From the IMG/VR virus record IMGVR_UViG_3300022660_000043: a DNA stretch of 64,000 nucleotides; one strand, 5' to 3'. Shown here piece by piece: positions 12,057-63,797 of the stretch. The DNA comes from a virus (taxonomy: Duplodnaviria > Caudoviricetes). The first letter of the stretch is position 1, and each line of letters opens with the position of its first letter. The position numbers were made by a program, and so were the translations under genes. The notes under the pieces are model-generated. The model worked only from the letters and a program-made list of their open reading frames with translations. It did no database searches and was not told the origin of the DNA.

Positions 12057-12086
12057 CACTGGTAAATCTCCTTTTTAAGATCTACA

Positions 12087-12096: not shown

Positions 12097-12102
12097 AAAA
12101 GA

Positions 12103-12127
12103 AAAGACCTGAGGTTAATCAGGTCTT
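12103..12127 (-). terminator. intrinsic terminator
   Basis: AAGACCTGA...TCAGGTCTT hairpin followed by a minus-strand U tract. Confidence 0.65.
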
Positions 12128-12132
12128 AAGTT

Positions 12133-12888: not shown

Positions 12889-12890
12889 TA

Positions 12891-41095: not shown

Positions 41096-41422
41096 TTATT
41101 CTAAATTTAACATATCTTTTAATATTCGGCTACCGGCAATACGTCCGGTACCATAGGTTATAATTTTAGCAATAGTATTTAGAGTAGGATCTGGGATCTT
41201 TACTATAATTTCTTGCTTCATATTAAGATTATAGCTGGTATTTTGCAATATATCTAGACATGCTTGACGCAAAGAAATCCCATAATTTTCTTGCAAATAT
41301 CTTGATAATAACAGCTCACTTGGGCCAAATGAATGCAAAATAAGCTGTAAGCGGGCTTTTTTCTTTGCCCTATGTATTAGTAAGTCTTTGTTTGGGCAAG
41401 AGCTTTTTATTATAAAAAACAT
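41096..41422 (-). CDS. basic hypothetical protein (neck region)
   Basis: 108-aa ORF, translationally coupled. Confidence 0.6.
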   Translation of the reverse strand: MFFIIKSSCPNKDLLIHRAKKKARLQLILHSFGPSELLLSRYLQENYGISLRQACLDILQNTSYNLNMKQEIIVKIPDPTLNTIAKIITYGTGRIAGSRILKDMLNLE

Positions 41423-42549
41423 TAAGATTTTCCTGTAGTAGCAGGCATTTTAGCTGATGGGTCTTTTGCTGCAATAGCACAAAGTAGCTCATCTACCTGT
41501 TTTGCTGAATAAGTTATTTTGCCTAGTTTTAGTAGTTCCTTTGCGGTATTAAACTGCTTACTTGTTACACCTTCAAGTGTATCACGATAAGTCATTAATG
41601 CTTTTTTCTCAGCGTCTTGTAATGAACCTAAGCATTTATCATTTAAGATTGGCAATACATCATAAGCAACAGTAAAAGTTTGTCTAACTGACTTAATATC
41701 TTTAAGTGCATCTACTATAGCTTTAATTAGCTTATCATCTGCTTCCGGCTTAGCTGAAAGATCTTTTCCGGTAAAGCTGGAAAATCTAGTTTTTGCCTTA
41801 GCAATATCTACTAAAGGACCTTTGGCTTTTACTTTTGATAACAACAAGTTTATTCTTTCAGGAGATATTTTATTTATATCCTGACCATCAACTGCTTCCT
41901 TTTCTTTAAGGAGATCTTCTGCTCTTGCTTGTAATAAACTAGAATACGCAAAAATTAACTTACAGTTTTGTTCTTTTTTTACTGTAGAACGGAACTTTAG
42001 CCACTCAGCTTGGTTACCACTAGATAAGTCAATAAAGTCTGGATGGAATAAGATATCATATGACCCAAATTTTTCAGAGACACCATTTCCAATCTGAGCT
42101 AGCTCGCCTGTGCCCAACCAGCTATTAGCCAAAGCTTTATCTAGCAGCATAAGGAAATTGGAATCATAACCACTATTGGCTATTGTAAATAATTCTGGAT
42201 TGTTTGCAAGTCCTTTTACAAGCCAATTTAAAATTGCATTCTCTGCAGTTGTCCAGCCATATTTTGGCAGATATACTGCTAAAGCTACATGAAATTTATC
42301 GCGAATGACTTTTTCATGCTCTTTAAACACTGTTTTATAAAACTTATCCCATACCTTAGTTAAAGCTTCAGGAGTTTTTGCATTGGCAAATTCCATCTCA
42401 AAATTTATAGCAGCAGTAGTATCTGTCGCATCAGCAACAGAACTTGTAGCTGCCCCTTCAGTTTCAGGAGTGCTCTCGCTAGAGAGATCACCCACATCAT
42501 CTCCTGAATCTTCTTCTAACAGAAGACGCTCATCTAAAATATATTTCAT
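41422..42549 (-). CDS. hypothetical protein with putative propeptide; candidate internal head protein
   Basis: MKYILDERLLLEED leader followed by an acidic linker. Confidence 0.65.
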   Translation of the reverse strand: MKYILDERLLLEEDSGDDVGDLSSESTPETEGAATSSVADATDTTAAINFEMEFANAKTPEALTKVWDKFYKTVFKEHEKVIRDKFHVALAVYLPKYGWTTAENAILNWLVKGLANNPELFTIANSGYDSNFLMLLDKALANSWLGTGELAQIGNGVSEKFGSYDILFHPDFIDLSSGNQAEWLKFRSTVKKEQNCKLIFAYSSLLQARAEDLLKEKEAVDGQDINKISPERINLLLSKVKAKGPLVDIAKAKTRFSSFTGKDLSAKPEADDKLIKAIVDALKDIKSVRQTFTVAYDVLPILNDKCLGSLQDAEKKALMTYRDTLEGVTSKQFNTAKELLKLGKITYSAKQVDELLCAIAAKDPSAKMPATTGKS

Positions 42550-44863: not shown

Positions 44864-45577
44864 TCAATCCATTGGAAAGATTAGATTATTATTAGCTCTT
44901 AGAAGCTCTCTTAGCTCCTTGAGGTCGGTATTACCTTCCTCCAATAGTTTCTCACCGTCTTGCGTCCAAAGAGCATTAGACTGGCTGAAACGCGTTCTAA
45001 TACGACCGAGTGTAACTTTAGTTAGTGCAGTGCTAAGTCTGATTAGAATATCTTGCCAATAATCACTTTGAATCTCCTCGACAGAACTTAGTTTAGGAAT
45101 AAATTCAATAGTGATGTGGCTAGGAGCTGAGGCACAGCTGATATATAATTTGTTATTATGCTTGTCTTCTCTAAAGGTTAGGTCAGTAGAAATAGTATTT
45201 CTAACTTGTCCAAGAGTAGTCCAAGCAGCATAATTCATTACATAGTCTTGTAAATTAAACATAGTGCCTGCGTTGCTAAAAATCATAAACTGCTGGGTAT
45301 ATAAAGGGTCAGACATTGCATTGATTTCATTACCGCCTTCGCCCATACCTGTGAATCTATAAACTTTAACAATAGCACTTGAATCCAGCTGATAGTATTT
45401 AAGATCTATGCAGGATTCATAAGGGATTGTAACAAAAGAAGATTCGTCCCAATATCTTTGCATTTCACGCATAGCTTTCTTAACTACCATTTCAAGCTGA
45501 GCATCCTCTAATTCAAGCTCAAGCACGCCGCCAGTTAACTCGAGTTTAATCTCTTCAATAACATCTACTAGTTGCAT
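44864..45577 (-). CDS. neck/head-tail adaptor (gp13-like)
   Basis: IKLELTGGVLELEL...W......A..K..LG.IR.....DG..L..EG. Confidence 0.8.
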   Translation of the reverse strand: MQLVDVIEEIKLELTGGVLELELEDAQLEMVVKKAMREMQRYWDESSFVTIPYESCIDLKYYQLDSSAIVKVYRFTGMGEGGNEINAMSDPLYTQQFMIFSNAGTMFNLQDYVMNYAAWTTLGQVRNTISTDLTFREDKHNNKLYISCASAPSHITIEFIPKLSSVEEIQSDYWQDILIRLSTALTKVTLGRIRTRFSQSNALWTQDGEKLLEEGNTDLKELRELLRANNNLIFPMD

Positions 45578-48957: not shown

Positions 48958-49001
48958 CTGTATGTCTCCCATTAGTCTTACGTGATATTTTGTTTATCAA
49001 A

Positions 49002-49035: not shown

Positions 49036-49356
49036 TTATTCAGCATCGTCCTCAACAGTTACTTCCTCTTCAGCGGCTAGCTCTTCAGCAGGTTCCTCAG
49101 TATTTTCAGTAGGAGCTACGGGGGTCTCAGTAGTCTCAGTGACCTCAGTGGTTTCTTCAGTAGCTACAGGATAAAGAACAATGTCATCCTCTGCAGGAAT
49201 ACCAGTCTCAGAAGCTCTGATCTCACCATCTGCTTCATAGACAAGTGCATAGCCCTCAACTTGCTCACGGGTAAGGCCCACTTCTACGCCGTCCTTCTCA
49301 GGAATACCAGACTCGCTCTTAAAGAACTTACCGTCTTTTTCGTAAATTAGTCTCAT
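49036..49356 (-). CDS. small acidic protein with internal duplication; own late promoter
   Basis: LIYEKDG...SESGIP / LVYEADG...SETGIP; AGCTAAATTA at 49413-49422. Confidence 0.7.
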   Translation of the reverse strand: MRLIYEKDGKFFKSESGIPEKDGVEVGLTREQVEGYALVYEADGEIRASETGIPAEDDIVLYPVATEETTEVTETTETPVAPTENTEEPAEELAAEEEVTVEDDAE

Positions 49357-49446
49357 TATTAAGTCTCCTTATTAATCTAAGTTCTCGGCTTTGTACTCCT
49401 AGCCGAATCAATTAATTTAGCTAATTTATTTTAGTATATATAAAAG

Positions 49447-49483
49447 AAATGCACTAGAGAGTTTGAAGCTCTCTAGTGCATTT
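49447..49483 (-). terminator. terminator after the portal operon
   Basis: AAATGCACTAGAGAG...CTCTCTAGTGCATTT. Confidence 0.75.
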
Positions 49484-49492
49484 GCATAGACT

Positions 49493-49966
49493 TTAAATTT
49501 GTAAATCTCTACGTCCCATAATGTGTTCCATTACTAGTAGATCTGCTTTAATAACTTTTAACATTGCTAGGCATGTATCGAGATTACCAGTAGCAAAGAA
49601 AGTGTTAAGTACTCTAGATATTTCTTCTGCTCTTACCTCTCTGTAGAAGGTAGTTGGATTACTTAGCTTTTTACCATACAGTAATACCTGTGTTAGTAGA
49701 CAAGAAAGAGTAGTAACAATTTCATTAGGGTCGTCAATCTCTTTTAATATATTAATATATAGTGGGGATTTACGTTGGTTGTGACTTTTACGTAGCATCT
49801 CATAAAAACGACCTACTTCGAAGCCGCGCTGCTGAGCAATAAATTTTAATACCTCAATTGATGGCTCACGTGTAACCATAAGTTTTCTGATATAATGTCT
49901 TGCTTCAAGAACTCCGCTATCCTCAAGCTTAACGAGAATAGAGAGACAATCATTCTTATAAATCAT
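49493..49966 (-). CDS. hypothetical protein downstream of portal
   Basis: 157-aa ORF with AAGGA SD. Confidence 0.7.
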   Translation of the reverse strand: MIYKNDCLSILVKLEDSGVLEARHYIRKLMVTREPSIEVLKFIAQQRGFEVGRFYEMLRKSHNQRKSPLYINILKEIDDPNEIVTTLSCLLTQVLLYGKKLSNPTTFYREVRAEEISRVLNTFFATGNLDTCLAMLKVIKADLLVMEHIMGRRDLQI

Positions 49967-49994: not shown

Positions 49995-51953
49995 TTAGTG
50001 ATTCTCAGTGAAATCTCTATCCGAGTCTGCTTCTTCCGGAGTGGGTAGATCATTATCCTCTTCAAATAATATATCCTCTGCTAGCAGAGTTCCACCACCG
50101 TTAGATGTGAATCCTTCAGCTGCGATAGCATCATCTGGCATAGCTGCTAAATCATCAGCAGCTTCGTCTCCTTCAGCAGCTGCTAGTTCGGCTGCCATAT
50201 CCTCATCTCCGCCGGCTTCAGCTTCCTCAGCTGCCTTAGCAGCTTCTTCTTCTGCGGCTTCAATTTCTTTTTGAATAACTTCCGAAATGTCACCGCCAAG
50301 CTCTAGAGTTGCAAGCAAAGATTTAAGAATTGTAAGACGTCTAGCCTTATTTTCAATATCTGTGAACAAGCCGTTAACATTGCTAATAGCAGACACTCTA
50401 TTGGTAAAGTTTTCTCTATAGCTAACTTCTTCCTGAGTAACTGGTGCTCTCATTTTTAGTACAAAATTGTTAAGATATGCTTTGCAACCTCTATCTAGCA
50501 GGAAAAGATTTATTGCATCAGTTAACATTTGAAGAGTAATGTTTTGAATTCTCTTTACACCTTTTGCATAAACACTGGATAATACTGTTAAAGCAGTTCC
50601 ACCATTAAATCCTGCCCCATCATCTGTCCAACCAAAGTACTGCTTAGGAATTCCAAATGAAGAATAGAATTTATTATTCCACCAATCAAGGTCTGTAAGC
50701 TGCTTAGGGTCAAAGTCACCACCAACAGATTCTACAGTGATAGCTCCCTTACCATCTCTAGTAGCATAGTATATAAAGTTTTCAACAGAACCTGGATTAT
50801 TATACTCGGCAAAAGACCTATCTGTATTGTAGGCGGCCTTTTGCTCAAACATTTCTTTTACCTTACGAAGAGTAGCCGCAACTTGTTCTTTACCCATGTC
50901 ACCGACTTCTACGCCAACTTTACGTACTATACCAGATTTTGTAATACGGCTTAAAAGTACAGCAGATTCGAGTAAAGCCTTTTCTCTCCAGATTTTATAA
51001 GCATCATAAAGTAATGATTTACCACGCTTTACAGAGTATGTAAAAGTTTCTCCGCCTTTATTATCAAGTTCTTTATTCTGTTCTTCGTAGAACAAGTCAA
51101 CAGTTTCTGGGAACCTAGAAATACCGTCTTCTAAGCAGGCATGTACAAAATCATCAGCTTGCCAAATATTTACGTCACTAGTTCCATATTTAAAATTAAA
51201 GGCATTAAGGCCTTGACCATTTCCACTACCACCCATTAAACCAGTAGTGGCACCTAGATAAGCAGCCGAGTCAATAGCATTTTCTTGATTAGGGACTTCA
51301 ATGTAGCCTTGGGTCTGACCAAATTTTGTAAGCTCAAACATTGTACCTGGATCTGCAACCATCTCAACATAATAGCTATAACGGTCGCCTGCAGGTCTAA
51401 CATTAAGTCTTACTGCCTCATCTAATTCTTTACTTTCATTAAGTTTAGTTTTAGTTTTAGCTTTAAAGATTGGATCTTTATAATCTGAATCTCTATATAG
51501 ACGTAGATATACATCTCCGTATTTAATTAGGCTGTATACCCAGCCAAAGATTTTTTTATCTACATTCATAATGTTAAGAAGGTAGTTTACAAATCTTGCA
51601 ATATCTGGATTATTTGATTCACACCATACGATGTGACCATTATCTGCAGCCTCACATACATCTTCTGCATAAGTTCTTACAATAGAACTTACAGCTGAAT
51701 CTTGACACATTGTATCTATAAGCTGATATATTTGGTCTCTAGCATTAGATATGGAAGTAAAGCTTTCAATAGCTGATACATCTAGTGTATGACTTAGGCC
51801 AGCTTCAATAATATTGTCGACTAAAGATTTAGCGGTATCAATATCTAGTTTAGTCGTGGAATCCAACACTGTTGGTTTTGCCTGATGACCTATCAGGGGA
51901 CTGTTTGTAGGAGTCTTTAAAATATCGACTTCCTTGGTCTCTTCATTTGCCAT
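49995..51953 (-). CDS. portal protein (T4 gp20-like)
   Basis: LIKYGDVY, GKSLL..A...W....LLESAVLLSRIT, VEVGDM, FGIPK. Confidence 0.9.
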   Translation of the reverse strand: MANEETKEVDILKTPTNSPLIGHQAKPTVLDSTTKLDIDTAKSLVDNIIEAGLSHTLDVSAIESFTSISNARDQIYQLIDTMCQDSAVSSIVRTYAEDVCEAADNGHIVWCESNNPDIARFVNYLLNIMNVDKKIFGWVYSLIKYGDVYLRLYRDSDYKDPIFKAKTKTKLNESKELDEAVRLNVRPAGDRYSYYVEMVADPGTMFELTKFGQTQGYIEVPNQENAIDSAAYLGATTGLMGGSGNGQGLNAFNFKYGTSDVNIWQADDFVHACLEDGISRFPETVDLFYEEQNKELDNKGGETFTYSVKRGKSLLYDAYKIWREKALLESAVLLSRITKSGIVRKVGVEVGDMGKEQVAATLRKVKEMFEQKAAYNTDRSFAEYNNPGSVENFIYYATRDGKGAITVESVGGDFDPKQLTDLDWWNNKFYSSFGIPKQYFGWTDDGAGFNGGTALTVLSSVYAKGVKRIQNITLQMLTDAINLFLLDRGCKAYLNNFVLKMRAPVTQEEVSYRENFTNRVSAISNVNGLFTDIENKARRLTILKSLLATLELGGDISEVIQKEIEAAEEEAAKAAEEAEAGGDEDMAAELAAAEGDEAADDLAAMPDDAIAAEGFTSNGGGTLLAEDILFEEDNDLPTPEEADSDRDFTENH

Positions 51954-51966: not shown

Positions 51967-54042
51967 TTATAAAACTATGATACCGTCAGAGATATCACGA
52001 TAATATTCATATTCCTCACGTTCTTGCTGTGAACGTAAATTATCTGCTGCCCAAATTTCTTGTTGAGTTTCAAAATATAATCTTGAAAGCTCATTTTCGA
52101 AAGCAGCGATCATTTGTGACTTAAGTGCAGTTTCGGATTGTAATAAGCTTACGTCAAGCCCTGCTTCAAGGTTTTCACCGTAGCTATAAGCAAACTCTTC
52201 TGCAAATTTACTTGCTAAGTAAAGCGCTCCACAAAAAGCGTCGGCTTGGTCTTTTGAGTTAATACCATCAGCAGTATGATCAATCTTACCATTAGACAGT
52301 CTTTCAAGACCAACAAGCTCGTCTGTGAGCAGATCACATTTTTTATAAATCTCTACTCTTCTTTCATAAATAGCTGTTTTTAGATAGTGATAAGGTAAAC
52401 ATGTTCTGCTTGTCTGATCAACACGGTCTACAGAAATTAGCTCTGTTCTAAAACCATCACTCTTAAGATCTTGCTGAATCTGGGCAGATTGGAATGTATC
52501 GCTTGATACTCCTTTTATTGCAAAGCCTCTATCACGCAGCCATCTAATAAAGTTTCTATTCTTTTCAAAACTTACTTGGTAGCCCTTCGGCGCTTTAACT
52601 GATACAGAGAAGGCAAGTTTATACTGCAACTCTCTTGAAGCGTCTGCATTTTCACCAACTTGTGTAGGACGTTTGCCTGTAATCCAAACACCAGAAATAC
52701 CAGTTTTGTCTCCAGAAATAGACATATCAAGATGGATAAATAGTGGTCTTGTTAAATCCATTGGATTTACCACACTTAAATCGAAGAAGTTAGCATATTG
52801 CAATTTATCATCTGGGCTATTACCAACTTCAATAATATCTTTCATGAATGGATTTCTATAAGTATCCACTTTGGCTTGGTTAAGTCGGACACCAGAAATA
52901 TATTTAGTGTTGCTGGAGGTGGAAATACCTGCAATGTCCATAAGTGCTTGGTCAAGGTTAGTCTCAAAATCTTCTCTATATCCAGGTGGAATTTTAATTA
53001 GAGAATAACCTTTTTCTCTGTATTTATCTACCTGATCTTCAGGTAAGTTTGCAGGGAGTAGTTCATGTGCTAAGAACTTATTACCTACAGCTACATAAAA
53101 AGCGCCAACGTCTTCAGGTGATCCTTTTCTAGGGTCAACTACCCATTGAGCCTCATCAATAATTAAAGTAGTTTTACTTTCGTTTTGTCGTTTAATATTT
53201 ATGTACGAATCGAGGAACGCTTGCTCGGTATCTTTGGACGAAATAATAATATTAAGTGTTGGTAGATAGGTACCGCGTAAAAAACGAGAACGCATACGTG
53301 CATCGATCTGTGCGATAAGTTTCTTTTGTTTAGCTTTTTTCTTTTCTACATCGTTTCCAATACCGAAGTTAACTTCATCTGTTAGATTGCAGAACAAAGC
53401 ACGACCAACGACGTGTCTATTTTGTGAACCAAAAATAAGCTCTATGTGTTTTCCAGGCTGCCAAACAGGATTAGACCTACTCGCATTTACGGCGCCATGA
53501 TCCATAAACCAGGAAGAGCTCTGAATAAGCTGTTGTGCCTTGTCCCAAGCAACGCCTTGTGCTGCATCCAATGTGATATTAAGCATTGAGAACGTAATTT
53601 TATCAATAGGCTGCATCCCAAAGTACGCATAAGGGTCTTTTAAACAAAGCATTCTATATAAAAGGTAAAGCTGTGCAATAACTGCTGCAAAAGATTTACC
53701 AATACCAATAGCACCCGTTAAAATTAAGGTATTATAAGCGGTAGTAAGGTTATCTGGGAAAAGTTTTTTTAAAGTTTCACGCCAGTATGGGAAGATAGTG
53801 CAACGTCTAGAACCGGACATTTGATCTACTTCCCATAGGCCTTTACCTAAATATCTATCATCATCAAGAAAGGTATCTATATCAACAGGGACTTCCTCAA
53901 AGTCACCAAACTGGAGCTGCTCTAATAGCTCAGATTGACCTTCTTGTGATATTTGTTTTAATATTTCAAGTGCTAGTTGGCGCTCTTCTTCATTCAAGCT
54001 ATTTAAGACATCAAGATCTATTGGATTTTCATTAGAAATCAT
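51967..54042 (-). CDS. terL: terminase large subunit
   Basis: Walker A GAIGIGKS, Walker B LTDE, RNase H-like HLDMS...SKDQADA; adjacent to portal. Confidence 0.9.
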   Translation of the reverse strand: MISNENPIDLDVLNSLNEEERQLALEILKQISQEGQSELLEQLQFGDFEEVPVDIDTFLDDDRYLGKGLWEVDQMSGSRRCTIFPYWRETLKKLFPDNLTTAYNTLILTGAIGIGKSFAAVIAQLYLLYRMLCLKDPYAYFGMQPIDKITFSMLNITLDAAQGVAWDKAQQLIQSSSWFMDHGAVNASRSNPVWQPGKHIELIFGSQNRHVVGRALFCNLTDEVNFGIGNDVEKKKAKQKKLIAQIDARMRSRFLRGTYLPTLNIIISSKDTEQAFLDSYINIKRQNESKTTLIIDEAQWVVDPRKGSPEDVGAFYVAVGNKFLAHELLPANLPEDQVDKYREKGYSLIKIPPGYREDFETNLDQALMDIAGISTSSNTKYISGVRLNQAKVDTYRNPFMKDIIEVGNSPDDKLQYANFFDLSVVNPMDLTRPLFIHLDMSISGDKTGISGVWITGKRPTQVGENADASRELQYKLAFSVSVKAPKGYQVSFEKNRNFIRWLRDRGFAIKGVSSDTFQSAQIQQDLKSDGFRTELISVDRVDQTSRTCLPYHYLKTAIYERRVEIYKKCDLLTDELVGLERLSNGKIDHTADGINSKDQADAFCGALYLASKFAEEFAYSYGENLEAGLDVSLLQSETALKSQMIAAFENELSRLYFETQQEIWAADNLRSQQEREEYEYYRDISDGIIVL

Positions 54043-54101: not shown

Positions 54102-55448
54102 TTACTTTTTTGCATCTTCTTCGTCGGAATTGTCGGTCTGCTTCTTAGCCTTTTCATCAGTTGCTTTATCTTCAGCCTCAGGCTTTTTATCAGAATTATC
54201 AGAAGCTTGCTGTGGCTCAGTTTTTTTAGCTTCTGGGGCTTGTTCCTTAGTCTCAGGCTTCGTAGCCTTCTGTTTACCTCCAGTGCCCGTAACGGGGTTT
54301 TTATTGGTACCAGGCTTATATTTACCTCTATTACGACCGTAATCATTGATAGCATCAATAATAGATTCAGACGTAGCAAGCTCTGTATCTTCTGGTAAGA
54401 GATTGTTTTCTTCAGCTTCGTCAAATGTCACTCCATAGAGCTTAGGAAAAATAAGCTTCAAAAACGCAGGTCTAAGCTTCTCTTCCGCATAGTGTACATA
54501 GTTATTTATAACACTAGCTACTTTAATTACCCAGTCACCATTTGCTAAACATAGAAGTACATGCTTACAACCTCTACCAAGCTGATCATTCGGGTTTCTA
54601 ATACCTTTTCCAGGTCCTGGGTCTTTAGATGTGTCATCTACTGACACCCTATTTATGATATTCCAATGAGCAAAACGATATTTATAGTCTGGACAGGAGC
54701 ATTTTACAAAAATATTAGCAGTATTAAAGACTTTGGTCAATGACTGCACGATAGTTTTGAATTCCAGAGTATTTTTATTGTTCTTAATGTTGCGTGCTAT
54801 CTCTTTTACTACACCATCCATACGAATACTAACAGTATAATTGTCAGTTTCACCAGTAACTGGGATAGAAACCTCCAAAATATCCTCTTTAAAAAGTTTA
54901 TTCATGTCAATTTTATTATACTGCTTTACTGTTTTTGCGATTTGAGAGTGTTTTTTACGCTCAAAGCGATTTTTTCCGCGCATTTGATTTTTATATGGTC
55001 CAACAGATCTAGATTTTGATACTAAAAGTGTTCTGGAGTCTTCATGGAGAGCTTCATTTAAGATTTTATACTCCCATTGAGGCACCATAACCATATCTCT
55101 ACCTAATTCGTACAGCTTTTCTCCGGATTTTCCAGTAATTTCAATATCATACAGATAATCTGGTTCAACTGCAAATTGTACCCAAACCTCATCTGTAATA
55201 TGTTGGTCTTGAACTTCACTGCTGGTTGGGATATAATAATTATCTGTTTCAATACTATATACTTTAAAACGCTGTCCCGTAATATCTTTATTTTCGTTTA
55301 TGCCAATAAGACAACCTTGAATAGTTGTACTAAAACAAATACGTGGAACTGTCTGGTCTTCATAATCACTTACCGGTACTCTTGGTACTAAAAGCTCTAA
55401 TTCAGATTGGCTTAGGTGATAAAGCGTCTTTAAGGCAGGCATAGGCAT
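54102..55448 (-). CDS. two-domain protein: ADP-ribosyltransferase-like N-domain plus SWIM zinc finger
   Basis: LYHLS...PRVP...ED.TVPRICFS..I.GCL...EVWV; linker ILNEALHED; CSCPDY...GCKH. Confidence 0.7.
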   Translation of the reverse strand: MPMPALKTLYHLSQSELELLVPRVPVSDYEDQTVPRICFSTTIQGCLIGINENKDITGQRFKVYSIETDNYYIPTSSEVQDQHITDEVWVQFAVEPDYLYDIEITGKSGEKLYELGRDMVMVPQWEYKILNEALHEDSRTLLVSKSRSVGPYKNQMRGKNRFERKKHSQIAKTVKQYNKIDMNKLFKEDILEVSIPVTGETDNYTVSIRMDGVVKEIARNIKNNKNTLEFKTIVQSLTKVFNTANIFVKCSCPDYKYRFAHWNIINRVSVDDTSKDPGPGKGIRNPNDQLGRGCKHVLLCLANGDWVIKVASVINNYVHYAEEKLRPAFLKLIFPKLYGVTFDEAEENNLLPEDTELATSESIIDAINDYGRNRGKYKPGTNKNPVTGTGGKQKATKPETKEQAPEAKKTEPQQASDNSDKKPEAEDKATDEKAKKQTDNSDEEDAKK

Positions 55449-55479
55449 ATCCTTTCAATTAAAATTTTAATTCATCGTA

Positions 55480-55489
55480 TAATTTAGCA
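55480..55489 (-). promoter_or_regulatory. putative late promoter
   Basis: TGCTAAATTA. Confidence 0.7.
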
Positions 55490-55520
55490 CATTATAATGC
55501 TATTTATACATTATAAAAGG

Positions 55521-55547
55521 AAAAGAGCGCCAAAATAGCGCTCTTTT
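55521..55547. terminator. intrinsic terminator
   Basis: AAAAGAGCGC...GCGCTCTTTT. Confidence 0.7.
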
Positions 55548-55549
55548 AT

Positions 55550-57334
55550 TTAAATACCCGCAAAATTTAATAGCTCAATAAAATCTTTGTCTTCTTGAGT
55601 AGTTAGTGACTCTCCAAGTAATACTGGGATAGGCTGTCTGTCATATTTATTTTGAATAACCTGTACTGGGAATTTAGTATTCCAGCCGTACTTTAGTCCA
55701 AGAAGATACATACGATGTCGGCCTTCCTGGCCATAAAGCTCACTACTTCTATCAAAACAGATATAGGGCATTGGAAATTGTTTATTATATACATCTAATA
55801 CTTGTTCAAGATGCTTAAGTTTAATTTGATCAGCTGCCATCCAAGACTTTATTTGGTCTGCGCTAACTCCTTGAATTTTAGCACAGAGCTTAAAATACTG
55901 ATCAGCTGTCATTGGAACAATATCATACACTAATTCCGGGTAATTAGTATTACCAGCTAATAGGTCTTTTGCTCCAAAATTACTTCCAACGGTAGTATCT
56001 ATTTTATCTGTATCAGTTAGCTCCTTAGTACCATAATCCCAGAACTTTTGGTCATTATCTAAGTAAGCTTCAGAAAGATCCGTTAACGATAGACGAGCTG
56101 CTACCACTTTGGCTCTAAGCTCTTTTAGTTTATCAAGATAGCCTTTATTACGCATCTCTTTGAAGACTAAATTTTCTGTAGAATATTCTCCGTCACCTTG
56201 TAAACCTTTTGCCCTAAGTTCATAAAGATCCTCAACAAATTCATCAATTGGAGTTTCATCTATGCTACCCGGGCCCTCTAAAGTTTTTAAGAGTTCTTTG
56301 TAGCGTTTTTCCCAAGGTTTTAAAATATCATTGATTTCTGCTATATCAATATCTGGAATAGCTTTATTTTCTGGTTCCTTAATCCAGGTATCATTTAAAA
56401 CAGAATATATGCCATTACTCACTACTGGAGTATCATCGCTTTCAATATATACTTCTACAGGGACACCATAGAAACTAATATCATACTTCTTATTAAACGC
56501 ACTTTTATAAGCATTAAATAGAGCAGGATATAAACCATCTGGATCTTCTATTCCTGACATATCAGCAACAAGATGAATATCTGCATCACTATCTTTTGTA
56601 TAGTTATAACTTGCATTTGAACCAGTTAAAACAATGTCTTTTAGCTTAAACTTAATGTCAGCCTCTTCCATTGCATTAATTAACTCTTCAGCTACTTCAA
56701 TAGCTTTTTCTCTAACATCTTTTTTTAGCTTTGTACCATCAAAAAGCTTAGGATTAAGCTCATCATGCTTCTCTATGTCTTCGTCTACATCAAGTCCTTC
56801 AGTTATTCTAGTATGCTGTACTATTTTGTAAAGTTCAACAAGTCGGTCTAAAATATCTGGCATATTTTGGACAAGATCTAAAAATTGAGGGACCATTGCT
56901 TCTAAAGTAGTAATATTCTTAAGTCCTTTTTTAAGCTGCGCCGCAACAACATCTTTACTAAAAGTTAAAGCCTCTACATAGGCAATAAGTAATCCAAAAG
57001 AAGGTGGAAAATAATCAAAGCAATCTAAAACAAGATTTCCCACGGTAGCTGGTGTAGTTTGCCAAACTTTCTGTGCAAATGGAACACCAAACATGCTTGG
57101 GCCTAGCTGAGTGAATAATTCATGTGGAATAATAAAAACTTCCTTGCCCATGATCTCAAATTCTTTTTCCATTTTAGCTCGCACATTTTTAAAGCCAAGA
57201 CTACACGCGCAAAGATAGTAATTACAAAAGGTATCAAAATTTAAGCTATCAAAATCATATTTTGACAAGTCTTGATCGACACCTTTGATGAGATCAATAG
57301 TTCTAGGATGCCATTTCATTTGTCTAATATCCAT
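55550..57334 (-). CDS. three-domain protein: unknown helical domain, Pol-beta-superfamily nucleotidyltransferase, ParB/Srx-like domain
   Basis: LTGSNASYNYTKDSDADIHL...VEVYIE; FPMPYI...QEGRHR...FPV. Confidence 0.78.
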   Translation of the reverse strand: MDIRQMKWHPRTIDLIKGVDQDLSKYDFDSLNFDTFCNYYLCACSLGFKNVRAKMEKEFEIMGKEVFIIPHELFTQLGPSMFGVPFAQKVWQTTPATVGNLVLDCFDYFPPSFGLLIAYVEALTFSKDVVAAQLKKGLKNITTLEAMVPQFLDLVQNMPDILDRLVELYKIVQHTRITEGLDVDEDIEKHDELNPKLFDGTKLKKDVREKAIEVAEELINAMEEADIKFKLKDIVLTGSNASYNYTKDSDADIHLVADMSGIEDPDGLYPALFNAYKSAFNKKYDISFYGVPVEVYIESDDTPVVSNGIYSVLNDTWIKEPENKAIPDIDIAEINDILKPWEKRYKELLKTLEGPGSIDETPIDEFVEDLYELRAKGLQGDGEYSTENLVFKEMRNKGYLDKLKELRAKVVAARLSLTDLSEAYLDNDQKFWDYGTKELTDTDKIDTTVGSNFGAKDLLAGNTNYPELVYDIVPMTADQYFKLCAKIQGVSADQIKSWMAADQIKLKHLEQVLDVYNKQFPMPYICFDRSSELYGQEGRHRMYLLGLKYGWNTKFPVQVIQNKYDRQPIPVLLGESLTTQEDKDFIELLNFAGI

Positions 57335-57344
57335 AACATCCTCC

Positions 57345-57878
57345 TTATAGTTTTTTAGTAATATCTGATATTATATCTGCGGTGCCAGAACCATTAATGA
57401 TATCATTAAGCATTTGTGGAATTTTAGCATAGTAAAGCTGTTTGTTAAAGTATTGTTTAATTTGCTGTACGAATTTAGGTAAATCAAGTACAATTGCCCA
57501 AACCAAATAAACCAGTAGTGTTTCAGCTGATGTTAAATTTGGAAAAGGATGAAGATATAAATTCGTAACTACGGGAGCAACATCTAAATCTGTCTTATGT
57601 TTAAGTAATAATTGAGCTTCATAGGGAGTAAATTGTGTTGAATCAATTTTATCAATATCTGGCCAGATATATAAATCTAAACCACCTCTATTGAGCATTT
57701 CAGCTTTAATTTGTTGCTCAGCATTTTTAAATCCGTTACTTATACAAATGTTATAATAAGTAACTAGCTTAATAGAACTGCATGCTTTTAAATTTTCTCG
57801 TCTTTGACCTTGGTTGAAAAGACGCATTTTATCATAGCCGCTAAGTGACGACGCTTCATAAAGTTTTATAGTTTTCAT
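57345..57878 (-). CDS. hypothetical protein, paralog of the N-domain of the downstream gene
   Basis: YYNICISNGFKN vs YYLCACSLGFKN; MKTIKLYEA leader. Confidence 0.7.
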   Translation of the reverse strand: MKTIKLYEASSLSGYDKMRLFNQGQRRENLKACSSIKLVTYYNICISNGFKNAEQQIKAEMLNRGGLDLYIWPDIDKIDSTQFTPYEAQLLLKHKTDLDVAPVVTNLYLHPFPNLTSAETLLVYLVWAIVLDLPKFVQQIKQYFNKQLYYAKIPQMLNDIINGSGTADIISDITKKL

Positions 57879-58966
57879 TAAAACTTACCTGCCTCTAACC
57901 TTGCTGGAATTACAAATTTGGCATTGCATGCGTCACAACAAACACCAGTTTCAGACACAGGAGCCGGATCATTACCGTATCCCTCAATTTCTTCTCCGCA
58001 GATTACACAAATTTTTTCTACTGCTTCGGTAAGTTTTTCGGTAAGACGATCATCATAGGCATTATCAAATTTTTCATCGGATGCAGTATCTGGGTTAAAT
58101 CTCGGACGATCTTCTTCATGTTTTACGTTAAGATCATAGTCCATGACTTTAACATGGTTTTTATCATATAAGATACCATCATCATAATAATAAATAATAT
58201 CACTTGGTTGTAAGAGGTGCACATCATCATGATCTGCAAGTGATTTCAAGGAGTATACAGAGCAATTTGCTTCGCCTACTTCTTGTACAAGTGCTTTAAG
58301 AATATCAGATTTTTTAGAACAGAAAATATTTTGAGGTCTAATATAATAACGCTTAATATATCTTTTAGGCTTTGGCTCTCTATCTTCGTCCTTGTCCTCA
58401 TGCAAGCTTTCAATACAGCTGCTGCTAGCCTCACTGCTACAGGCTGTATCTGCGCCTGCACTATTACTTCCAAGGTCTGAGGTTCCCATACGATCATTAA
58501 AGCATTTATCATCAAACTCTGGGTAACCAGTGGTAAAGGTAAGGTAAGTACCATCATCACCAAAGCGACTCTTGCGACGCTTTCTTTTATGTTTCTTTTC
58601 TGTAAGAGGTTCTTTAGTCCAGCTTTCTAGAAATTCACAGTCGGCTCTATTAAGCATATTATTAATTGCCTCGATAGCTTCTTCTGTAGATCCTTTGTGC
58701 TCACTATCAGCACAAGTCATTTGTGAGCATACCTGAGGAGTATTAGGCACTTTAATCAAATGAATTCTTACTTGACCGTCTACTTCTGCTTCTTTAAACT
58801 GATTTACAAAGCTAGCATAATCTGGTTGTATAGTTTCAGGCGATGTATCGCATTTATAAATGTAACTGCAAGTAGGAAGGCTTTGTTCTATTACTAAGGC
58901 AAAGAGATCTGATGTATCATCAAACTCTTCTAACTCCCAGTTTTCATTAACAAAATATTTTTTCAT
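57878..58966 (-). CDS. multidomain acidic protein with C-terminal zinc finger
   Basis: CVICG...GYGNDPAP...CCDACN...VIPAR; segments separated by LTE/LHE. Confidence 0.7.
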   Translation of the reverse strand: MKKYFVNENWELEEFDDTSDLFALVIEQSLPTCSYIYKCDTSPETIQPDYASFVNQFKEAEVDGQVRIHLIKVPNTPQVCSQMTCADSEHKGSTEEAIEAINNMLNRADCEFLESWTKEPLTEKKHKRKRRKSRFGDDGTYLTFTTGYPEFDDKCFNDRMGTSDLGSNSAGADTACSSEASSSCIESLHEDKDEDREPKPKRYIKRYYIRPQNIFCSKKSDILKALVQEVGEANCSVYSLKSLADHDDVHLLQPSDIIYYYDDGILYDKNHVKVMDYDLNVKHEEDRPRFNPDTASDEKFDNAYDDRLTEKLTEAVEKICVICGEEIEGYGNDPAPVSETGVCCDACNAKFVIPARLEAGKF

Positions 58967-58992
58967 TATTTTGCCCCTTTCTTGTGGATGAA

Positions 58993-59043
58993 GATGCCCA
59001 AGGACGCGCGGTGAAAGGATAAGCCCACACGCCCCCGAACATC
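58993..59043 (-). promoter_or_regulatory. 5' leader RNA hairpin (19 bp, 7 GU pairs)
   Basis: GATGTTCGGGGGCGTGTGG pairs fully with CCGCGCGTCCTTGGGCATC only on the minus strand. Confidence 0.65.
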
Positions 59044-59046
59044 ATA

Positions 59047-59056
59047 TAATTTAGCA
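59047..59056 (-). promoter_or_regulatory. putative late promoter
   Basis: TGCTAAATTA. Confidence 0.7.
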
Positions 59057-59064
59057 AATATAAA

Positions 59065-59096
59065 AAGCGGAGTAGCCATTTAAGCTTACTCCGCTT
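59065..59096 (-). terminator. intrinsic terminator
   Basis: AAGCGGAGTA...TACTCCGCTT with a minus-strand U tract. Confidence 0.7.
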
Positions 59097-59107
59097 GAAT
59101 TTTTTAA

Positions 59108-59671
59108 TTAGCCATTTAGGCGTCTTGTTTTAGGTGCGCCCTCATCATCATAAAGCTCAGCATCTGTAACAGGTGCTTGAGTCATATCAGGCTCATCAAA
59201 GTCTACAAAAAAATCAAAGTCATCATCAATGATGGGTGCTGGAGCAGGTGTACGAGACACAGGCGCTTTCATAGGCTCTACATCAAACTCTGCTTCAGGA
59301 AGAGCAGGTGCAGGCGCAGGTTCTTCTGCAGCTTCATCTTCTTCATCCTTATCATCATCTTTAGACTCGGACTCAGACTTGTCATCCTCTGTATCTTCTG
59401 CTTCATCATCATCTTCTGGCTTTTCTGTAGAAATGTCAGCCTTATCATTAAGATAAAACTCAAGCTGACCAATAAATACTAGATACGCGTCCATAAGGTC
59501 TTGCATTAGTTCTTCAACTTTTTCAGTGCCTGCGTAAGTTTCTCGAATAGCAGCAGCGGCTTCTTTTAGATAGCCTACCTCGTCCCAGCCCTTACTCATC
59601 ATATCTGTAATAAAAGATACAGGAAGTTCTTCCATAGTAGGCTTATCATTATCTTCTCTTAAAATTCGCAT
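59108..59671 (-). CDS. acidic protein with helical hairpin; candidate internal head protein
   Basis: MRILRED leader; two amphipathic helices ending IGQLE; acidic tail. Confidence 0.65.
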   Translation of the reverse strand: MRILREDNDKPTMEELPVSFITDMMSKGWDEVGYLKEAAAAIRETYAGTEKVEELMQDLMDAYLVFIGQLEFYLNDKADISTEKPEDDDEAEDTEDDKSESESKDDDKDEEDEAAEEPAPAPALPEAEFDVEPMKAPVSRTPAPAPIIDDDFDFFVDFDEPDMTQAPVTDAELYDDEGAPKTRRLNG

Positions 59672-59685
59672 AGTATATCCTTTCC

Positions 59686-60567
59686 TCAGATTAAATTATA
59701 TTCAATAGTGCCTAAACGGCCTTTAAGTTCTTTAGGTAAATTAGATGCACGAATACCATTTTTCCATAGATACCATACACAGCCATCCACAAGAACTTTC
59801 TTGGAATGATCACCCCAAGTATCCATATCGCTGTCTGTAAGAATCATTACATTAGTACAGCCACTCGCAAGAATTTGATTTACAATATGAGGCCAAGCAC
59901 CGGTTCCACCACCTTTGCTTCTTGCACCTTCTGGAGTTGTTGCAATATCATCTGTAAAGTAGAAAATATTAAGTTCTAACTTACCATCATCAACAAATTC
60001 AGAAAGGTCTTCGACAACTGCACGACCTCTTATTAAATCGCTTTCACTCCAAGAGCCTGAATAATCTAAAAATACTTCAATCTTAGGTACTGTAGGTCTA
60101 GTTACATCTGTAGTTCTTTTGCCTCGTACTACCATATCGGGGTCATCTTCATAGCGTCTATTAAGCACTAGCCAAGTTTCTTCTTCCTCTTCATAAGCTC
60201 TAACTTGTTCAGAAATTGTTTCAAAAATATCATCTCTAAGCTTATTCTGGTTGTTATTGGCCATGCGTTTCTTATAACGCTCAGCTTCTCTTTGTTTAGC
60301 ACGAAGAGCTTTTCTTTCATCTCTTTCTGGCTTTAAATAAACTTCATCTTCATCAAAGAGTTCTTTATTCTTTGTAGCATCGCTGGCATCTGCTTTAATT
60401 TTTGCAATTCGAGCCGGCAGATCCGTAGAATAGTCAACAGGCTTAACTGTACTTACTAGATCAAGAATGTCATCAATCATACTATCATATTCTTCTTGTG
60501 ACATTTCACCTAGAGTTTTAGCTTCAAGTAATTTTTTAGCTTCAGTAAGAGAAATTCTTTTAATCAT
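59686..60567 (-). CDS. vWA-domain protein
   Basis: MIDAS FLDYSGS...GGGT...ILTDSD; start MIKRISLTEA. Confidence 0.85.
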   Translation of the reverse strand: MIKRISLTEAKKLLEAKTLGEMSQEEYDSMIDDILDLVSTVKPVDYSTDLPARIAKIKADASDATKNKELFDEDEVYLKPERDERKALRAKQREAERYKKRMANNNQNKLRDDIFETISEQVRAYEEEEETWLVLNRRYEDDPDMVVRGKRTTDVTRPTVPKIEVFLDYSGSWSESDLIRGRAVVEDLSEFVDDGKLELNIFYFTDDIATTPEGARSKGGGTGAWPHIVNQILASGCTNVMILTDSDMDTWGDHSKKVLVDGCVWYLWKNGIRASNLPKELKGRLGTIEYNLI

Positions 60568-61321
60568 CGATATCCCCCGTTCCGCCAAGCTCATCGAATA
60601 GTTTTCTTAGAGCTCTATCTGCGCCTGTTTTTGCGTTACCGCCTAGCCCCTTAAGTCTTTTAATAACTGCGGCTAAAATTTCTTCTGGGGTAGGCTGTTT
60701 ACCATTACCCATGCCGCCTTGTCTCATCCTAAACGGGTCTAATTCTTTTGAGCTTGAGCTGCTTTTGCCTTTTCCGCTGGCTTCACGGCTCTCACCTTTA
60801 TCTCCAGTATCAGCTTCACCACTACCAGCGCCACCACTACCTTTTGGACCAATAGACTTAGTGCCTGCTGCATGATTACCATTATGTTTATTTAAATCAG
60901 CGATATCTTCAGGAGTTTTTTCTTCTTGCTCATTCTCACTCTCACCTGAATTACTTTTACTAGAGCCTTGGTCTTCAGTATCACTAGCACTATTATCGTC
61001 ACTATTTACTGTGGTACCATCCACAGTTCCATTATCACTGTCGTCAGGTTCCTCTTCAGTTTGAGTGCCTTTATTGTCATCGCCGGTATCACTAACTGAA
61101 GGTGGATCTTCTTCATCCTCATAATCCGGTTGTTGAGTAGCTAATAATATTTTTTCAAGGGCATCTGCTTTAGCATTAAGCATATCTGCTACATCTTGTT
61201 TACCTGCAGCTACAGCTTCCGCAGCAGCCTCTCGAGCAAGTTTGATAGTACGATCAGCATCTACTATTCTGTCAAAGACTACGTGGTCTGATACTATATT
61301 TTTTGGAATTTCAATTGCCAT
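60560..61321 (-). CDS. acidic low-complexity linker-like protein
   Basis: D/E/S/G-rich middle region between short helices; resembles the linker of peptidase-vWA fusions. Confidence 0.65.
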   Translation of the reverse strand: MAIEIPKNIVSDHVVFDRIVDADRTIKLAREAAAEAVAAGKQDVADMLNAKADALEKILLATQQPDYEDEEDPPSVSDTGDDNKGTQTEEEPDDSDNGTVDGTTVNSDDNSASDTEDQGSSKSNSGESENEQEEKTPEDIADLNKHNGNHAAGTKSIGPKGSGGAGSGEADTGDKGESREASGKGKSSSSSKELDPFRMRQGGMGNGKQPTPEEILAAVIKRLKGLGGNAKTGADRALRKLFDELGGTGDIDD

Positions 61322-61322
61322 A

Positions 61323-62399
61323 TTACACACCTCTTGTCTTATCCCAGATATCTTTTATTGTATTGCTGTCATACCCGAAATTTTTCAAGGTAATATAGAC
61401 AGTTCTATACCAATCTTCTTCTTCTGATCTAAATTTCTTAATAACCTCTACTGCAAAACCTTTTTGCTCTGGAGTGTGTAAATCTACAACTTTTTTGGCT
61501 GTCACAGGATGAATTATTGGAGTAGTATGTGTTGGATTAGACTTTTTAATTGTAAGCAATAAACTATCTACTTGCTTGTCATTGATAGGTGTTGTGGTAA
61601 AAGCTTCATAGATAGATTTAATAATATTATAATAATCTTCAGGTAAGTTACGTCCTTTAAACTTAAAGTCATTAGCTGCCATGTCAGCCAGTAAGTCATC
61701 AATTTCCGAAGTACGATCAATTTCTCCATATTTATCCATAGAAGCTCTAATTCTTGGAGCAAGGTCATCCTCTGGATTACTATGATGAGCGATAGCTGAC
61801 TTGATTCCATTAGCAATCTCATTATGTATTGCATCAATTTCTGCTTGCAATCTATGGTACATCTGCTCTATCGGAAGATCTACCCATTCAAGTCTAATAT
61901 CATCCGTGATAAGACCACCGATAGTTCTACCATTAAGGAACATATTTCTTACAACTTCCTTATCTTCCGCAGAGTAAATCCTATCAGAAATCTCAAGATC
62001 TTCAATATAATTTAAAAATCCATGCAGGGTCATACTATTACCCCACTTGATATCAAACTCTTCACCAAATTTTCTCATCATACGAATCTGGTGCATAAGA
62101 AGATTGTGTGCTAGCTCGTGTCTCATAAGCACATTAAGTTGGTAAAATAAAGACTCATCTAATAAAAAGCCTTCACTAATATAGATAACGCCAAGATCAA
62201 AAGAAATTGCAGCAGTACAGGTAGGGTCTGCTTTCAATGAAACAATTTTAATATTAAAATCTTTGAGGCGCATTGCATACTTTTTGTGGTGGTGACCTTT
62301 ACCATCGTCGAGAAGCAGCTTAATAAGTTTTCTATGTAGCTGCTTCTCTTGCTTAGTCATATGCTGCTTAGCCTCAGTTAAGCGTAAGCTAGATTTCAT
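61323..62399 (-). CDS. zincin-like metallopeptidase (DUF2201-N-like)
   Basis: TAA...IY...F...LMRHELAHNLLMH...NYIEDLEI. Confidence 0.8.
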   Translation of the reverse strand: MKSSLRLTEAKQHMTKQEKQLHRKLIKLLLDDGKGHHHKKYAMRLKDFNIKIVSLKADPTCTAAISFDLGVIYISEGFLLDESLFYQLNVLMRHELAHNLLMHQIRMMRKFGEEFDIKWGNSMTLHGFLNYIEDLEISDRIYSAEDKEVVRNMFLNGRTIGGLITDDIRLEWVDLPIEQMYHRLQAEIDAIHNEIANGIKSAIAHHSNPEDDLAPRIRASMDKYGEIDRTSEIDDLLADMAANDFKFKGRNLPEDYYNIIKSIYEAFTTTPINDKQVDSLLLTIKKSNPTHTTPIIHPVTAKKVVDLHTPEQKGFAVEVIKKFRSEEEDWYRTVYITLKNFGYDSNTIKDIWDKTRGV

Positions 62400-62414
62400 A
62401 TGCCCTCCAATTAG

Positions 62415-63797
62415 TTACCATGCCTTAGCAGCGTTTCTGATTTTATCTTGAACTACTGATGGAGACACTGCATAGGTAGTACCAGCAGAGTTACCATTTG
62501 CAAACAAGTCATCATCATCCTCGCCGTAGTCATCAAAATTAATTTCATCCTCTTCTGATTCACCTTCATTTTCCTCAGCTTCAGGTTCTTCAGTCTGTAT
62601 ATCTACATTTGCGCCAAGTGCCTTAAGGTCAATGCCTTTTGTGGAGCAAAGATCTTCAAATGTTGGCTCATAATAATCATTAATAATGGTCCTTAACATA
62701 TCCATATTGTCTTCAAGGAAGTCAGAAGAATTAAGTAGCGTAAGGAAACCATCTTTTGTACCTCTACTTGCCTTAAGAAGCTCAAACAGCATTCTCTGGT
62801 TAAGCATATCTGCATCTTCCATCTCTAACGCCTGTAACATACTCTGAAGCTCATCTTTGGAAGCTGCACCCTCACCATCATATTTAAAGTCTCTATGATT
62901 TACAATAAATCTGCCTAGGTGCTGAATTCTTAAAAATGTTTCAAGATTACGTAAAAAATTAGGATGTTTCGGATTAAGCTTTTTAATAAGCCTGTCATAA
63001 TACTTGAGAAGGAAGTCATCTGTCGTTCTGGAATCAGAATGAGCATTTTTATTCTTAAACAGATATCTGGTTTTCTCTGCCTGGAAGAGCTTAGCTGCAC
63101 CGGGGTCAGACTTTAAACTTGGGTTGATACAAGCTACTGTAAAGAGTAGGTTTTTAAAGTAGTACTTGCCACCGGGAACATCAGCCTGAATAGTTTTATT
63201 GTTTACCAAGGTAAGTAGAGAACCACGAATCTGGTCTTTAGTCTGTCTATTAAGCTCATCAAGGAAGATAATAGAATTCTTACTCTCATCCTTAAGAGCA
63301 TCAAGTGTATTTGAGAAGGCCTTAGTAACTTTCTTACGGTCTGTATCATCTCTAACCGTAAAGCCGTTAATGAAAGCTTCTAGGTCATTATCTTTTGCAT
63401 TAATTTCGACACAGTTAAGACCTCTAGCCCTTGCCCAGTTTTCTACAATGGCTGTCTTACCAGAGCCAGGTAAACCAGAAATAAGAACATTACCCATACT
63501 ATGCTGACCTAGTTGCTGTTGCTCTAGAGCATATTCAAGAGCTCTGTCAAGAAGGTCAGTAATTACATTTTTAGTTTCAATAGCACCAGTATCACCTTCC
63601 TCATCTGGGAGGAATATAGCTTCTTCAGCCTGAATAGCTTGGCCTACCTCTTTAATTTCAGCAGCTGCATCTGTTGCTGCTTCCGCAGATACCTCACCGT
63701 CTGTAGAGTCTTCAATCTCATCCGCAATCTCTGCTACGGAGTCAGAAGTATTAATATCTGCTGCTTCAATGTCTTCTTGTAGTCTTTTAATTTTCAT
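62415..63797 (-). CDS. MoxR-type AAA+ ATPase
   Basis: Walker A GLPGSGKT, Walker B IIFLDELNR, LLTLV, ACINP; linked to vWA gene. Confidence 0.85.
   Translation of the reverse strand: MKIKRLQEDIEAADINTSDSVAEIADEIEDSTDGEVSAEAATDAAAEIKEVGQAIQAEEAIFLPDEEGDTGAIETKNVITDLLDRALEYALEQQQLGQHSMGNVLISGLPGSGKTAIVENWARARGLNCVEINAKDNDLEAFINGFTVRDDTDRKKVTKAFSNTLDALKDESKNSIIFLDELNRQTKDQIRGSLLTLVNNKTIQADVPGGKYYFKNLLFTVACINPSLKSDPGAAKLFQAEKTRYLFKNKNAHSDSRTTDDFLLKYYDRLIKKLNPKHPNFLRNLETFLRIQHLGRFIVNHRDFKYDGEGAASKDELQSMLQALEMEDADMLNQRMLFELLKASRGTKDGFLTLLNSSDFLEDNMDMLRTIINDYYEPTFEDLCSTKGIDLKALGANVDIQTEEPEAEENEGESEEDEINFDDYGEDDDDLFANGNSAGTTYAVSPSVVQDKIRNAAKAW

Follow-up and report, generated by a model that had tools for sequence, protein, structure and literature searches.

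A candidate prohead-targeted enzyme block with head-protease motifs in leaders and domain seams, beside the terminase gene of an uncultured jumbo phage

Introduction

The prohead protease gp21 of bacteriophage T4 cuts after L/I-x-E, and the propeptides it removes are 7-65 residues long (PMC9026906). A capsid-targeting sequence of 10 residues is enough for packaging in this phage (PMC3012670), and most core proteins and propeptides are cut and then expelled (PMC9026906). In phages of the phiKZ type the propeptides hold several sites, and a bolus of ejected proteins exists (PMC9026906, PMC10052503). Packaged polyvalent proteins, encoded near virion genes and cut by a zincin-like metallopeptidase (MPTase), were predicted in phages by Iyer, Burroughs, Anand, de Souza and Aravind in 2017 (PMC5512222). 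The present work concerns a 9.7 kb block of enzyme genes situated upstream of the large terminase gene (54102-63797, minus strand) in the tailed-phage record IMGVR_UViG_3300022660_000043, whose proteins carry L-x-E motifs in short N-terminal leaders and at the joints between their domains, here called seams. A sequence-only reading of this DNA had proposed that the phage loads a broad enzyme kit into its head, partly as polyproteins which the head protease cuts into separate effectors. Comparison with related genomes gave partial support to this interpretation, through the protease, the capsid site, the leaders, the seams and a shared promoter-like motif, and none through a general enrichment of the motif.

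Results

The window, i.e. the whole stretch of 64,000 nucleotides that was analysed, belongs to the reverse strand of a virus record of 221,361 bp which is about 95% complete. Genes were called across the whole genome with starts guided by ribosome-binding sites, giving 255 proteins, and six related contigs were found by terminase anchoring and MoxR alignment. The block contains the following genes:

62415..63797, minus strand: MoxR-type AAA+ ATPase (Pfam AAA, AAA_5, AAA_3), with an 8-residue leader at 63774-63797 (L-Q-E then D)
61323..62399, minus strand: zincin-type metallopeptidase with invariant H-E-x-x-H, and a 9-residue leader at 62373-62399 (L-T-E then A)
60560..61321, minus strand: p256, an acidic low-complexity linker protein
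59686..60567, minus strand: vWA (DUF2201-like) protein, with a leader at 60541-60567 (L-T-E then A)
59108..59671, minus strand: p187, an acidic protein of 187 amino acids, with a leader at 59654-59671 (L-R-E then D)
57878..58966, minus strand: p362, a four-module protein composed of a leader (58943-58966), N-terminal domain, site 1 (58598-58612), basic linker, site 2 (58397-58411), C-terminal domain, site 3 (58025-58048) and Zn ribbon
57345..57878, minus strand: p177, with a leader at 57855-57878 (L-Y-E then A)
55550..57334, minus strand: three-domain nucleotidyltransferase (NTase) protein, with a p177-like N-terminal domain, seam I-T-E (56798-56812), nucleotidyltransferase, seam L-S-E (56069-56083) and C-terminal domain
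54102..55448, minus strand: ADP-ribosyltransferase (ART)-fold/SWIM protein, with an ART-fold N-terminal domain (residues 1-131), seam L-N-E/L-H-E (55041-55064) and a highly conserved SWIM-type core

The leader is found in all 108 MoxR homologues with a full N-terminus, where it reads M-K-I-x-K, 0-5 residues and [L/I]-x-E followed by S, A, D or N, with the glutamate mostly at positions 8-13; in shuffles of the N-terminal extension the motif was matched 40 times on average and 54 times at most. The residue at P3 is L in 78 sequences, I in 27 and V in two. Since the leader is followed by about 60 variable acidic residues, it is not merely the edge of a fold. The homologues carry PF07726 and PF07728, and one source labels a homologue 'MoxR-like ATPase'. 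In the zincin family (121 sequences) P3 is L, I or F in 112 of 117 cases and E occupies P1 in 110 of 118, while leader length and sequence are very variable; residues 1-11 are the only disordered part of the AlphaFold model of the zincin (predicted local distance difference test score 88.7). The fold matches of the zincin are weak, being to selecase and M48, with a weak Pfam M48 match in 32 of 54 members. The gene always adjoins these block genes and travels with MoxR and a DUF2201-like vWA gene. The start of the vWA gene is an ATG overlapping the upstream stop codon and served by a GGGGGA ribosome-binding site; its product has no Pfam match, and its ESM Atlas neighbours carry DUF2201 and VWA with scores of 0.91-0.92. 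The leader motif of p187 is kept in six of seven relatives at a varying distance from the initial methionine. Conservation of the leader likewise extends to the vWA protein, p177 and the SWIM core.

With the vWA start placed at 60567, the motif occurs within 13 residues of the N-terminus in six of seven consecutive genes of the block, which is the maximum of the whole genome (permutation p 0.028), and the homologous block of the complete relative G003 has such leaders in seven of seven (p 0.003). A looser form of the test, in which the glutamate could lie at positions 5-12 and the vWA start was left uncorrected, did not reach significance (p 0.14-0.26). Comparison of genomes G000 and G003 gave 83 reciprocal-best-hit pairs; the N-terminal motif was common to both members in 16 of them, with 9 expected, and such sharing was commoner in block and head genes than in all others (Fisher p 0.0012). 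The extended form E-S-L-x-E occurs 13 times in G003 against 1.7 expected, and 12 of the 13 copies lie in the head module and the block. A matrix built from the MoxR leaders ranked the N-termini of the vWA protein, the protease and p177 high in G000 and transferred poorly to G003; beyond L-x-E and basic residues the likeness of leaders between families is modest. The density of generic [LIV]xE is slightly high in the head module (1.22x). Taken over the genome the generic motif is at chance level; the signal is a positional and evolutionary one.

The seams are the most telling evidence for reading the motifs as predicted protease sites. The linker protein p256 and the vWA protein are fused in frame in five of seven relatives (L009, L011-L014), giving proteins of 655-737 amino acids, and where the vWA gene is split off, in the window and in L008, its leader aligns with an internal S-L-x-E (then D or A) of these fused forms. 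In L012 a protein begins directly behind a site that lies in the polyprotein of another relative. In the p362 family every relative keeps the three internal sites at their positions, with divergent linkers between them. A protein of one relative begins right behind site 1, about 820 amino acids are inserted at site 2 in three relatives, and the Zn ribbon that follows site 3 is a separate gene in L014. The p177 domain is found inside proteins of 1144-1154 amino acids in three relatives with S-L-T-E-A directly before it, and L008 has a fused copy in which the leader is retained internally. Both seams of the NTase protein (phrog_36119 and a weak Pfam NTP_transf_2 match) are kept in relatives with different flanking domains, and the NTase core stands alone as a gene in cyanophages, Lak phages and others. 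Over its first 175 or so residues the NTase protein is paralogous to p177, a domain which recurs in the relatives in stand-alone, N-terminal and internal positions and could be an adaptor or targeting domain.

The seam of the ART/SWIM protein coincides with the boundary between a folded domain and the start of a disordered stretch in the predicted model. It reads L-x-E-D-[ST]-R in every form of the protein, and stand-alone cores carry only a short leader before it. Other lineages have, ahead of the SWIM core, an ART-fold domain, an unrelated domain of 170 amino acids or a NUDIX-containing region of 507 amino acids. The VIA-align matches of the ART domain are almost all ART folds with modest Z scores of 5-8 (best 7.9); at the position of the candidate catalytic His, L008 has Phe, and the family consensus shows no conserved His there. 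Residues 137-180 of this protein (54650-55040) are near-invariant in more than 1000 clusters, very basic and, by prediction, disordered, which suggests that they may bind DNA or a partner such as the portal.

In total, unrelated families show the same three-residue rule at no less than eight points where fusion, fission or swapping took place independently. The polyproteins of the relatives measure 470-1215 amino acids, and those of 1045-1215 carry p177-like, NTase, NUDIX and Zn-ribbon modules. The question raised by the sequence-only reading, whether homologous domains shuffle at these junctions in related phages, can be answered in the affirmative: the sites are kept and coincide with fusion, fission and domain-swap points.

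The head module that follows the block contains the protease proposed to process these proteins:

51967-54042, minus strand: large terminase
49995-51953, minus strand: portal
49036-49966, minus strand: two small proteins
47050-48972, minus strand: protease-scaffold fusion of 640 amino acids (Peptidase_S77 PF03420, E 3e-9, above cutoff; phrog_207, E 4e-25)
45701-47017, minus strand: gp23-like major capsid protein (phrog_138; 29% identity to Bacillus phage HSE3 and about 23% to T4-likes)
44864-45577, minus strand: gp13-like adaptor (phrog_211)
41422..42549, minus strand: p375, a head/neck-module protein with a leader at 42529-42549 (I-L-D-E) which is kept in its positional orthologue in G003
38354-40291, minus strand: tail sheath

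The late module lies on the minus strand of the window in T4 style, and the order portal, two small proteins, protease, scaffold, capsid is the same as in a T4-like record. The 47050-48972 protein joins a protease of the T4 gp21/S77 family to an acidic coiled-coil scaffold. Its assignment by the earlier reading holds: besides the PF03420 and phrog_207 matches, the alignment with T4-like gp21 shows the invariant His (E-L-G-H-P) and the G-I-S-S-R-G serine motif in both, and an L-x-E lies near the N-terminus of the protease as it does in T4 gp21. The capsid propeptide of 50 residues does end in F-L-T-E (46868-46885), F-L-T-E-S aligning column for column with the F-L-T-E-A of T4-like gp23, and the site is kept in relatives. 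The propeptide boundary is homologous to the FLTE site of T4-type gp23, and cleavage there is predicted. On its leader, p375 is an additional candidate substrate of the protease. The window also encodes an extremely acidic protein of 579 amino acids (43079-44818) with a Zn ribbon and two repeats of about 45 residues each ending in L-T-L-x-E. Its G003 homologue has 1217 amino acids and three E-S-L-x-E sites. The 579-residue protein is possibly a principal component of the core or another major internal protein.

As to the other details given by the sequence-only reading, every motif that it had quoted for block leaders and between domains was present at the genes it had named, and the leaders do cluster there. 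Of its examples outside the block, the one at 42549 is the p375 leader described above, those at 11393 and 5777 were supported by no comparison, and the one at 12056 falls in a frame without a usable start codon. In this region (11393-12087, minus strand) a promoter-like GCTAAATTA and a strong ribosome-binding site feed an open reading frame of 19 codons starting at about 12056; a frame of about 200 codons lies behind it in another reading frame and begins ATG ATG AGC TAG, so that its expression needs TAG read-through, a frameshift or an assembly error. No homologue was found in G000 or G003.

A promoter-like motif, GCTAAATTA(WW)TGAT, is present in 29 copies genome-wide, nearly all of them intergenic and pointing to the downstream gene. 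It is shared by the block and the structural genes:

59047..59055, minus strand: upstream of p362
55480-55488: before ART-SWIM/terminase
40361, 45618, 49002 and 49413: before the structural genes for sheath, adaptor, protease and p106
about 64927, just past the end of the window: before the gene heading the MoxR operon

A sub-type of GCTAAATTA followed by A-[AG]-TG precedes several genes outside the window whose products resemble GIY-YIG homing endonucleases at their N-terminal end. The T4 late promoter TATAAATA was rejected as the promoter in this phage, its 15 copies (7.8 expected) being mostly intragenic.

In the relatives the gene order MoxR, zincin, linker and vWA, p187, p362-family protein and then NTase and SWIM proteins is kept. 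Block proteins are 40-60% identical to their counterparts and structural proteins 70-87%. The clade is large, with more than 1000 SWIM-core clusters. TGA is read as Trp in late and block genes of five of six related phages (L005/L009, L011-L014; relatives G002-G006), the in-frame TGAs falling on conserved Trp positions, and the standard code is used in the genome of the window and in G001, which means that the code switches inside one phage clade. The possibility that the long open reading frames of the relatives are an artefact of translation with code 4 was rejected, since the in-frame TGAs lie on conserved Trp positions and none lies at a seam. In L005 the terminase match (10001-13075) spans about 3.1 kb instead of 2.1 kb, with about 250 extra in-frame codons near residue 117, possibly an intein or mobile insert.

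Database searches added little. Megablast of the block against cultured phages and a locus search with the zincin as single-protein query gave no match. Pfam, NCBIfam and PHROGs held no family for the zincin, vWA, p177, p187, p256, p362, p375 and p579 proteins of the window; PDB sequence-profile searches of solved structures returned nothing useful, and an ESM Atlas search with p177 had no match. The MoxR, zincin, vWA, NTase and ART-fold assignments made by the sequence-only reading hold to varying degrees.

Discussion

The leaders and seams of the block are likely to be real, selected elements. That they are head-protease sites marking proteins targeted to the prohead is the most economical explanation, in view of the documented rule of the encoded protease, the match with the capsid site, the disordered or boundary positions of the motifs and the neutrality of fusion and fission, and from these sequence comparisons we give it about an even chance of being right. 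In such a T4-type jumbo myovirus the prohead protease, of the gp21/S77 family and joined to the scaffold, would cut after [L/I]-x-E, and the block upstream of the terminase would be expressed together with the structural genes. Each block protein has a short basic N-terminal leader ending in the motif, or the motif at its domain joints. The leaders would act like the capsid-targeting sequence of T4 and bring the proteins into the prohead core, where the head protease would strip the leaders and part the domains, and the matured pieces would remain in the head as cargo or assembly helpers. As a cut site makes one gene or two functionally equivalent, modules could be freely fused, split and swapped at the joints, which would explain the polyproteins of 470-1215 amino acids in the relatives. 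An extension of T4-style capsid targeting and processing to enzymes and polyproteins is on this evidence probable; delivery into the host would be a less certain step than targeting.

A wider possibility, which we put forward tentatively and hold to be true with a chance of perhaps one in three, is that the head-protease site serves as a universal connector in a very large clade of uncultured jumbo phages, where a short leader or an L-x-E joint is enough to load any enzyme and free it as a separate unit. The delivered kit, comprising a MoxR-vWA-zincin machine, ART, NTase, NUDIX and further, uncharacterised modules, would then evolve by fusion, fission and swapping, and the arrangement might, by analogy and at the same tentative level, be likened to the polyprotein strategy of RNA viruses placed inside the head of a DNA phage.

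A number of observations weigh against head-protease sites. The sequence-only reading had itself named a lack of [LIV]xE enrichment over composition-matched background as counting against its proposal, and as far as density is concerned no enrichment was found: the block holds 51 motifs against 51.7 in composition-matched shuffles (0.99x), and an [LIV]xE with its glutamate at positions 5-12 occurs in 45 of 255 proteins (17.6%) against 14-18% in shifted internal windows. The sheath and a topoisomerase, which are unlikely to be cleaved, also conserve an N-terminal L-x-E pairwise, and pairwise orthologue conservation was rejected as a specific criterion because both pass it. The MoxR-leader matrix puts only some of the other block proteins above internal-window controls. 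Conservation in the zincin family is just as strong in the columns behind the site, and the next residue is Pro in about 40% of its members; in this family and in that of the SWIM core the motif borders on a stretch of general conservation. The N-terminal leader of p362 has Asp for Glu at P1 in L008. By tblastn no cultured phage carries either the MoxR or the zincin gene, and in phage 0305phi8-36 a MoxR pair lies in the non-structural arm. Lastly, the SWIM core resembles a conserved neck-module protein: its homologues in the cultured phages SP-15, LIS04 and HSE3 lie between neck protein and sheath and have an L-F-E at residue 5, close to their start. Addition of neck proteins normally comes later than the work of the protease, and the SWIM core, if a neck protein, would not meet the prohead protease.

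Much of this would suit an explanation in which the leaders and seams are kept for reasons that have nothing to do with the head, among them folding, binding of a partner and the context of the translation start, or persist as relics of gene fusion, and in which the proteins are ordinary late cytoplasmic enzymes with a MoxR-vWA chaperone, neither packaged nor cut. The chance-level frequency of the generic motif, the sheath and topoisomerase, the proline at P1' and the conserved-region edge, the 0305phi8-36 pair and the weak transfer of the leader matrix between families all speak for it. It is less easily brought into agreement with a MoxR leader present in 108 of 108 sequences and followed by a non-conserved stretch, with one rule recurring at so many independent points of fusion, fission or swapping, with the concentration of E-S-L-x-E in the head and block of G003, or with the identity between this rule and both the known specificity of the encoded protease family and the capsid site. 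We consider it unlikely, at roughly one chance in five.

Two further explanations accept cutting and differ in its outcome or its agent. The proteins might enter the prohead and be cut there as transient assembly or core factors, most fragments leaving before DNA packaging and nothing being delivered. This would follow the fate of T4 core proteins and propeptides, which are mostly cut and expelled (PMC9026906), and it would agree with the richness of the block in acidic, disordered, scaffold-like sequence (p256, p187, the MoxR N-terminal extension) and with MoxR-vWA pairs being remodelling chaperones, of which p618 of Acidianus two-tailed virus (ATV) acts in virion morphogenesis (PMC4124505). 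The ART-fold, NTase and NUDIX domains look directed at the host rather than related to assembly, and the rapid divergence of the block relative to the structural proteins resembles that of the injected internal proteins of T-even phages (PMC3012670); we regard transient factors as improbable. More doubtful still, and to our mind very improbable, is that the multidomain proteins are polyvalent proteins processed by the zincin of the block instead of the head protease. The prediction of Iyer et al. for packaged phage proteins (PMC5512222) and a conserved zincin with intact H-E-x-x-H always beside these genes would fit such processing. Here the zincin is a separate gene, not an embedded domain, and itself bears a leader; it travels with MoxR and the DUF2201-like vWA protein, a known three-part module; and it is for the S77 family that an L/I-x-E rule is documented, the capsid site bearing the same motif.

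If the head-protease reading is true, packaged and possibly injected proteins could be read from sequence in thousands of uncultured jumbo phages, and the capsid-targeting principle of T4 would reach large enzymes and polyproteins and explain the frequent fusing and splitting of their genes. It would place a MoxR-vWA-zincin machine inside the head of a tailed phage, for which no bacteriophage precedent was found, and it would offer, in the leaders, existing tags with which proteins could be loaded into capsids of this kind.

Of the described systems, the internal proteins IPI-III and Alt of T4 with gp21 have in common with this locus the protease family, the L/I-x-E rule, a homologous capsid site and late expression, as well as a set of unrelated, fast-evolving proteins with short N-terminal leaders (6-13 residues), among them an enzyme that in the block has a putative ART fold. 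In distinction to T4, the candidate cargo is larger and enzymatic (MoxR AAA+, zincin, vWA, NTase, and NUDIX in a relative), is clustered beside the terminase and is in many cases multi-domain with sites at internal joints; protease and scaffold are one polypeptide, and the system is known from sequence alone. The phiKZ, 201phi2-1 and SPN3US phages (proteases gp175 and gp245) are likewise jumbo phages, in which a gp21-related protease cleaves many of the head proteins behind Glu (PMC9026906, PMC10052503). Their proteases differ in using S/A-x-E and their propeptides are mostly of 111-254 residues, no homology to the block was found, and modular fusion or fission at the sites is not described in the literature found on them.

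The polyvalent proteins resemble the block in being strings of unrelated enzymatic domains (ART, NTase, ParB-like, NUDIX neighbours) beside virion genes, with predicted packaging and cutting into units and the involvement of a zincin (PMC5512222); a layout of this type is seen here in the proteins of three to four modules encoded in the window beside virion genes. Their processing is assigned to an embedded MPTase, whereas in the block it is the head-protease motif that is found at the joints, and the zincin has a gene of its own, bears a leader and is tied to MoxR and vWA; the description of polyvalent proteins makes no mention of MoxR, vWA or prohead-protease processing (PMC5512222). In ATV the proteins p618 and p892 pair a MoxR-type AAA+ ATPase with a vWA protein in the virus particle (PMC4124505) and offer, by analogy, a precedent for a virion-borne MoxR with a vWA partner. 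Compared by description only, ATV differs in being an archaeal spindle virus without prohead protease or leaders, in which the role of the pair is extracellular tail growth (PMC4124505). What was known beforehand is the principle in T4, another form of it in phiKZ-like phages, and packaged multi-domain proteins as predicted by Iyer et al.; what appears to be new is the cargo (the MoxR-vWA-zincin module, NTase, ART and NUDIX), the modular use of the head-protease motif at joints, and the large extent of the uncultured clade.

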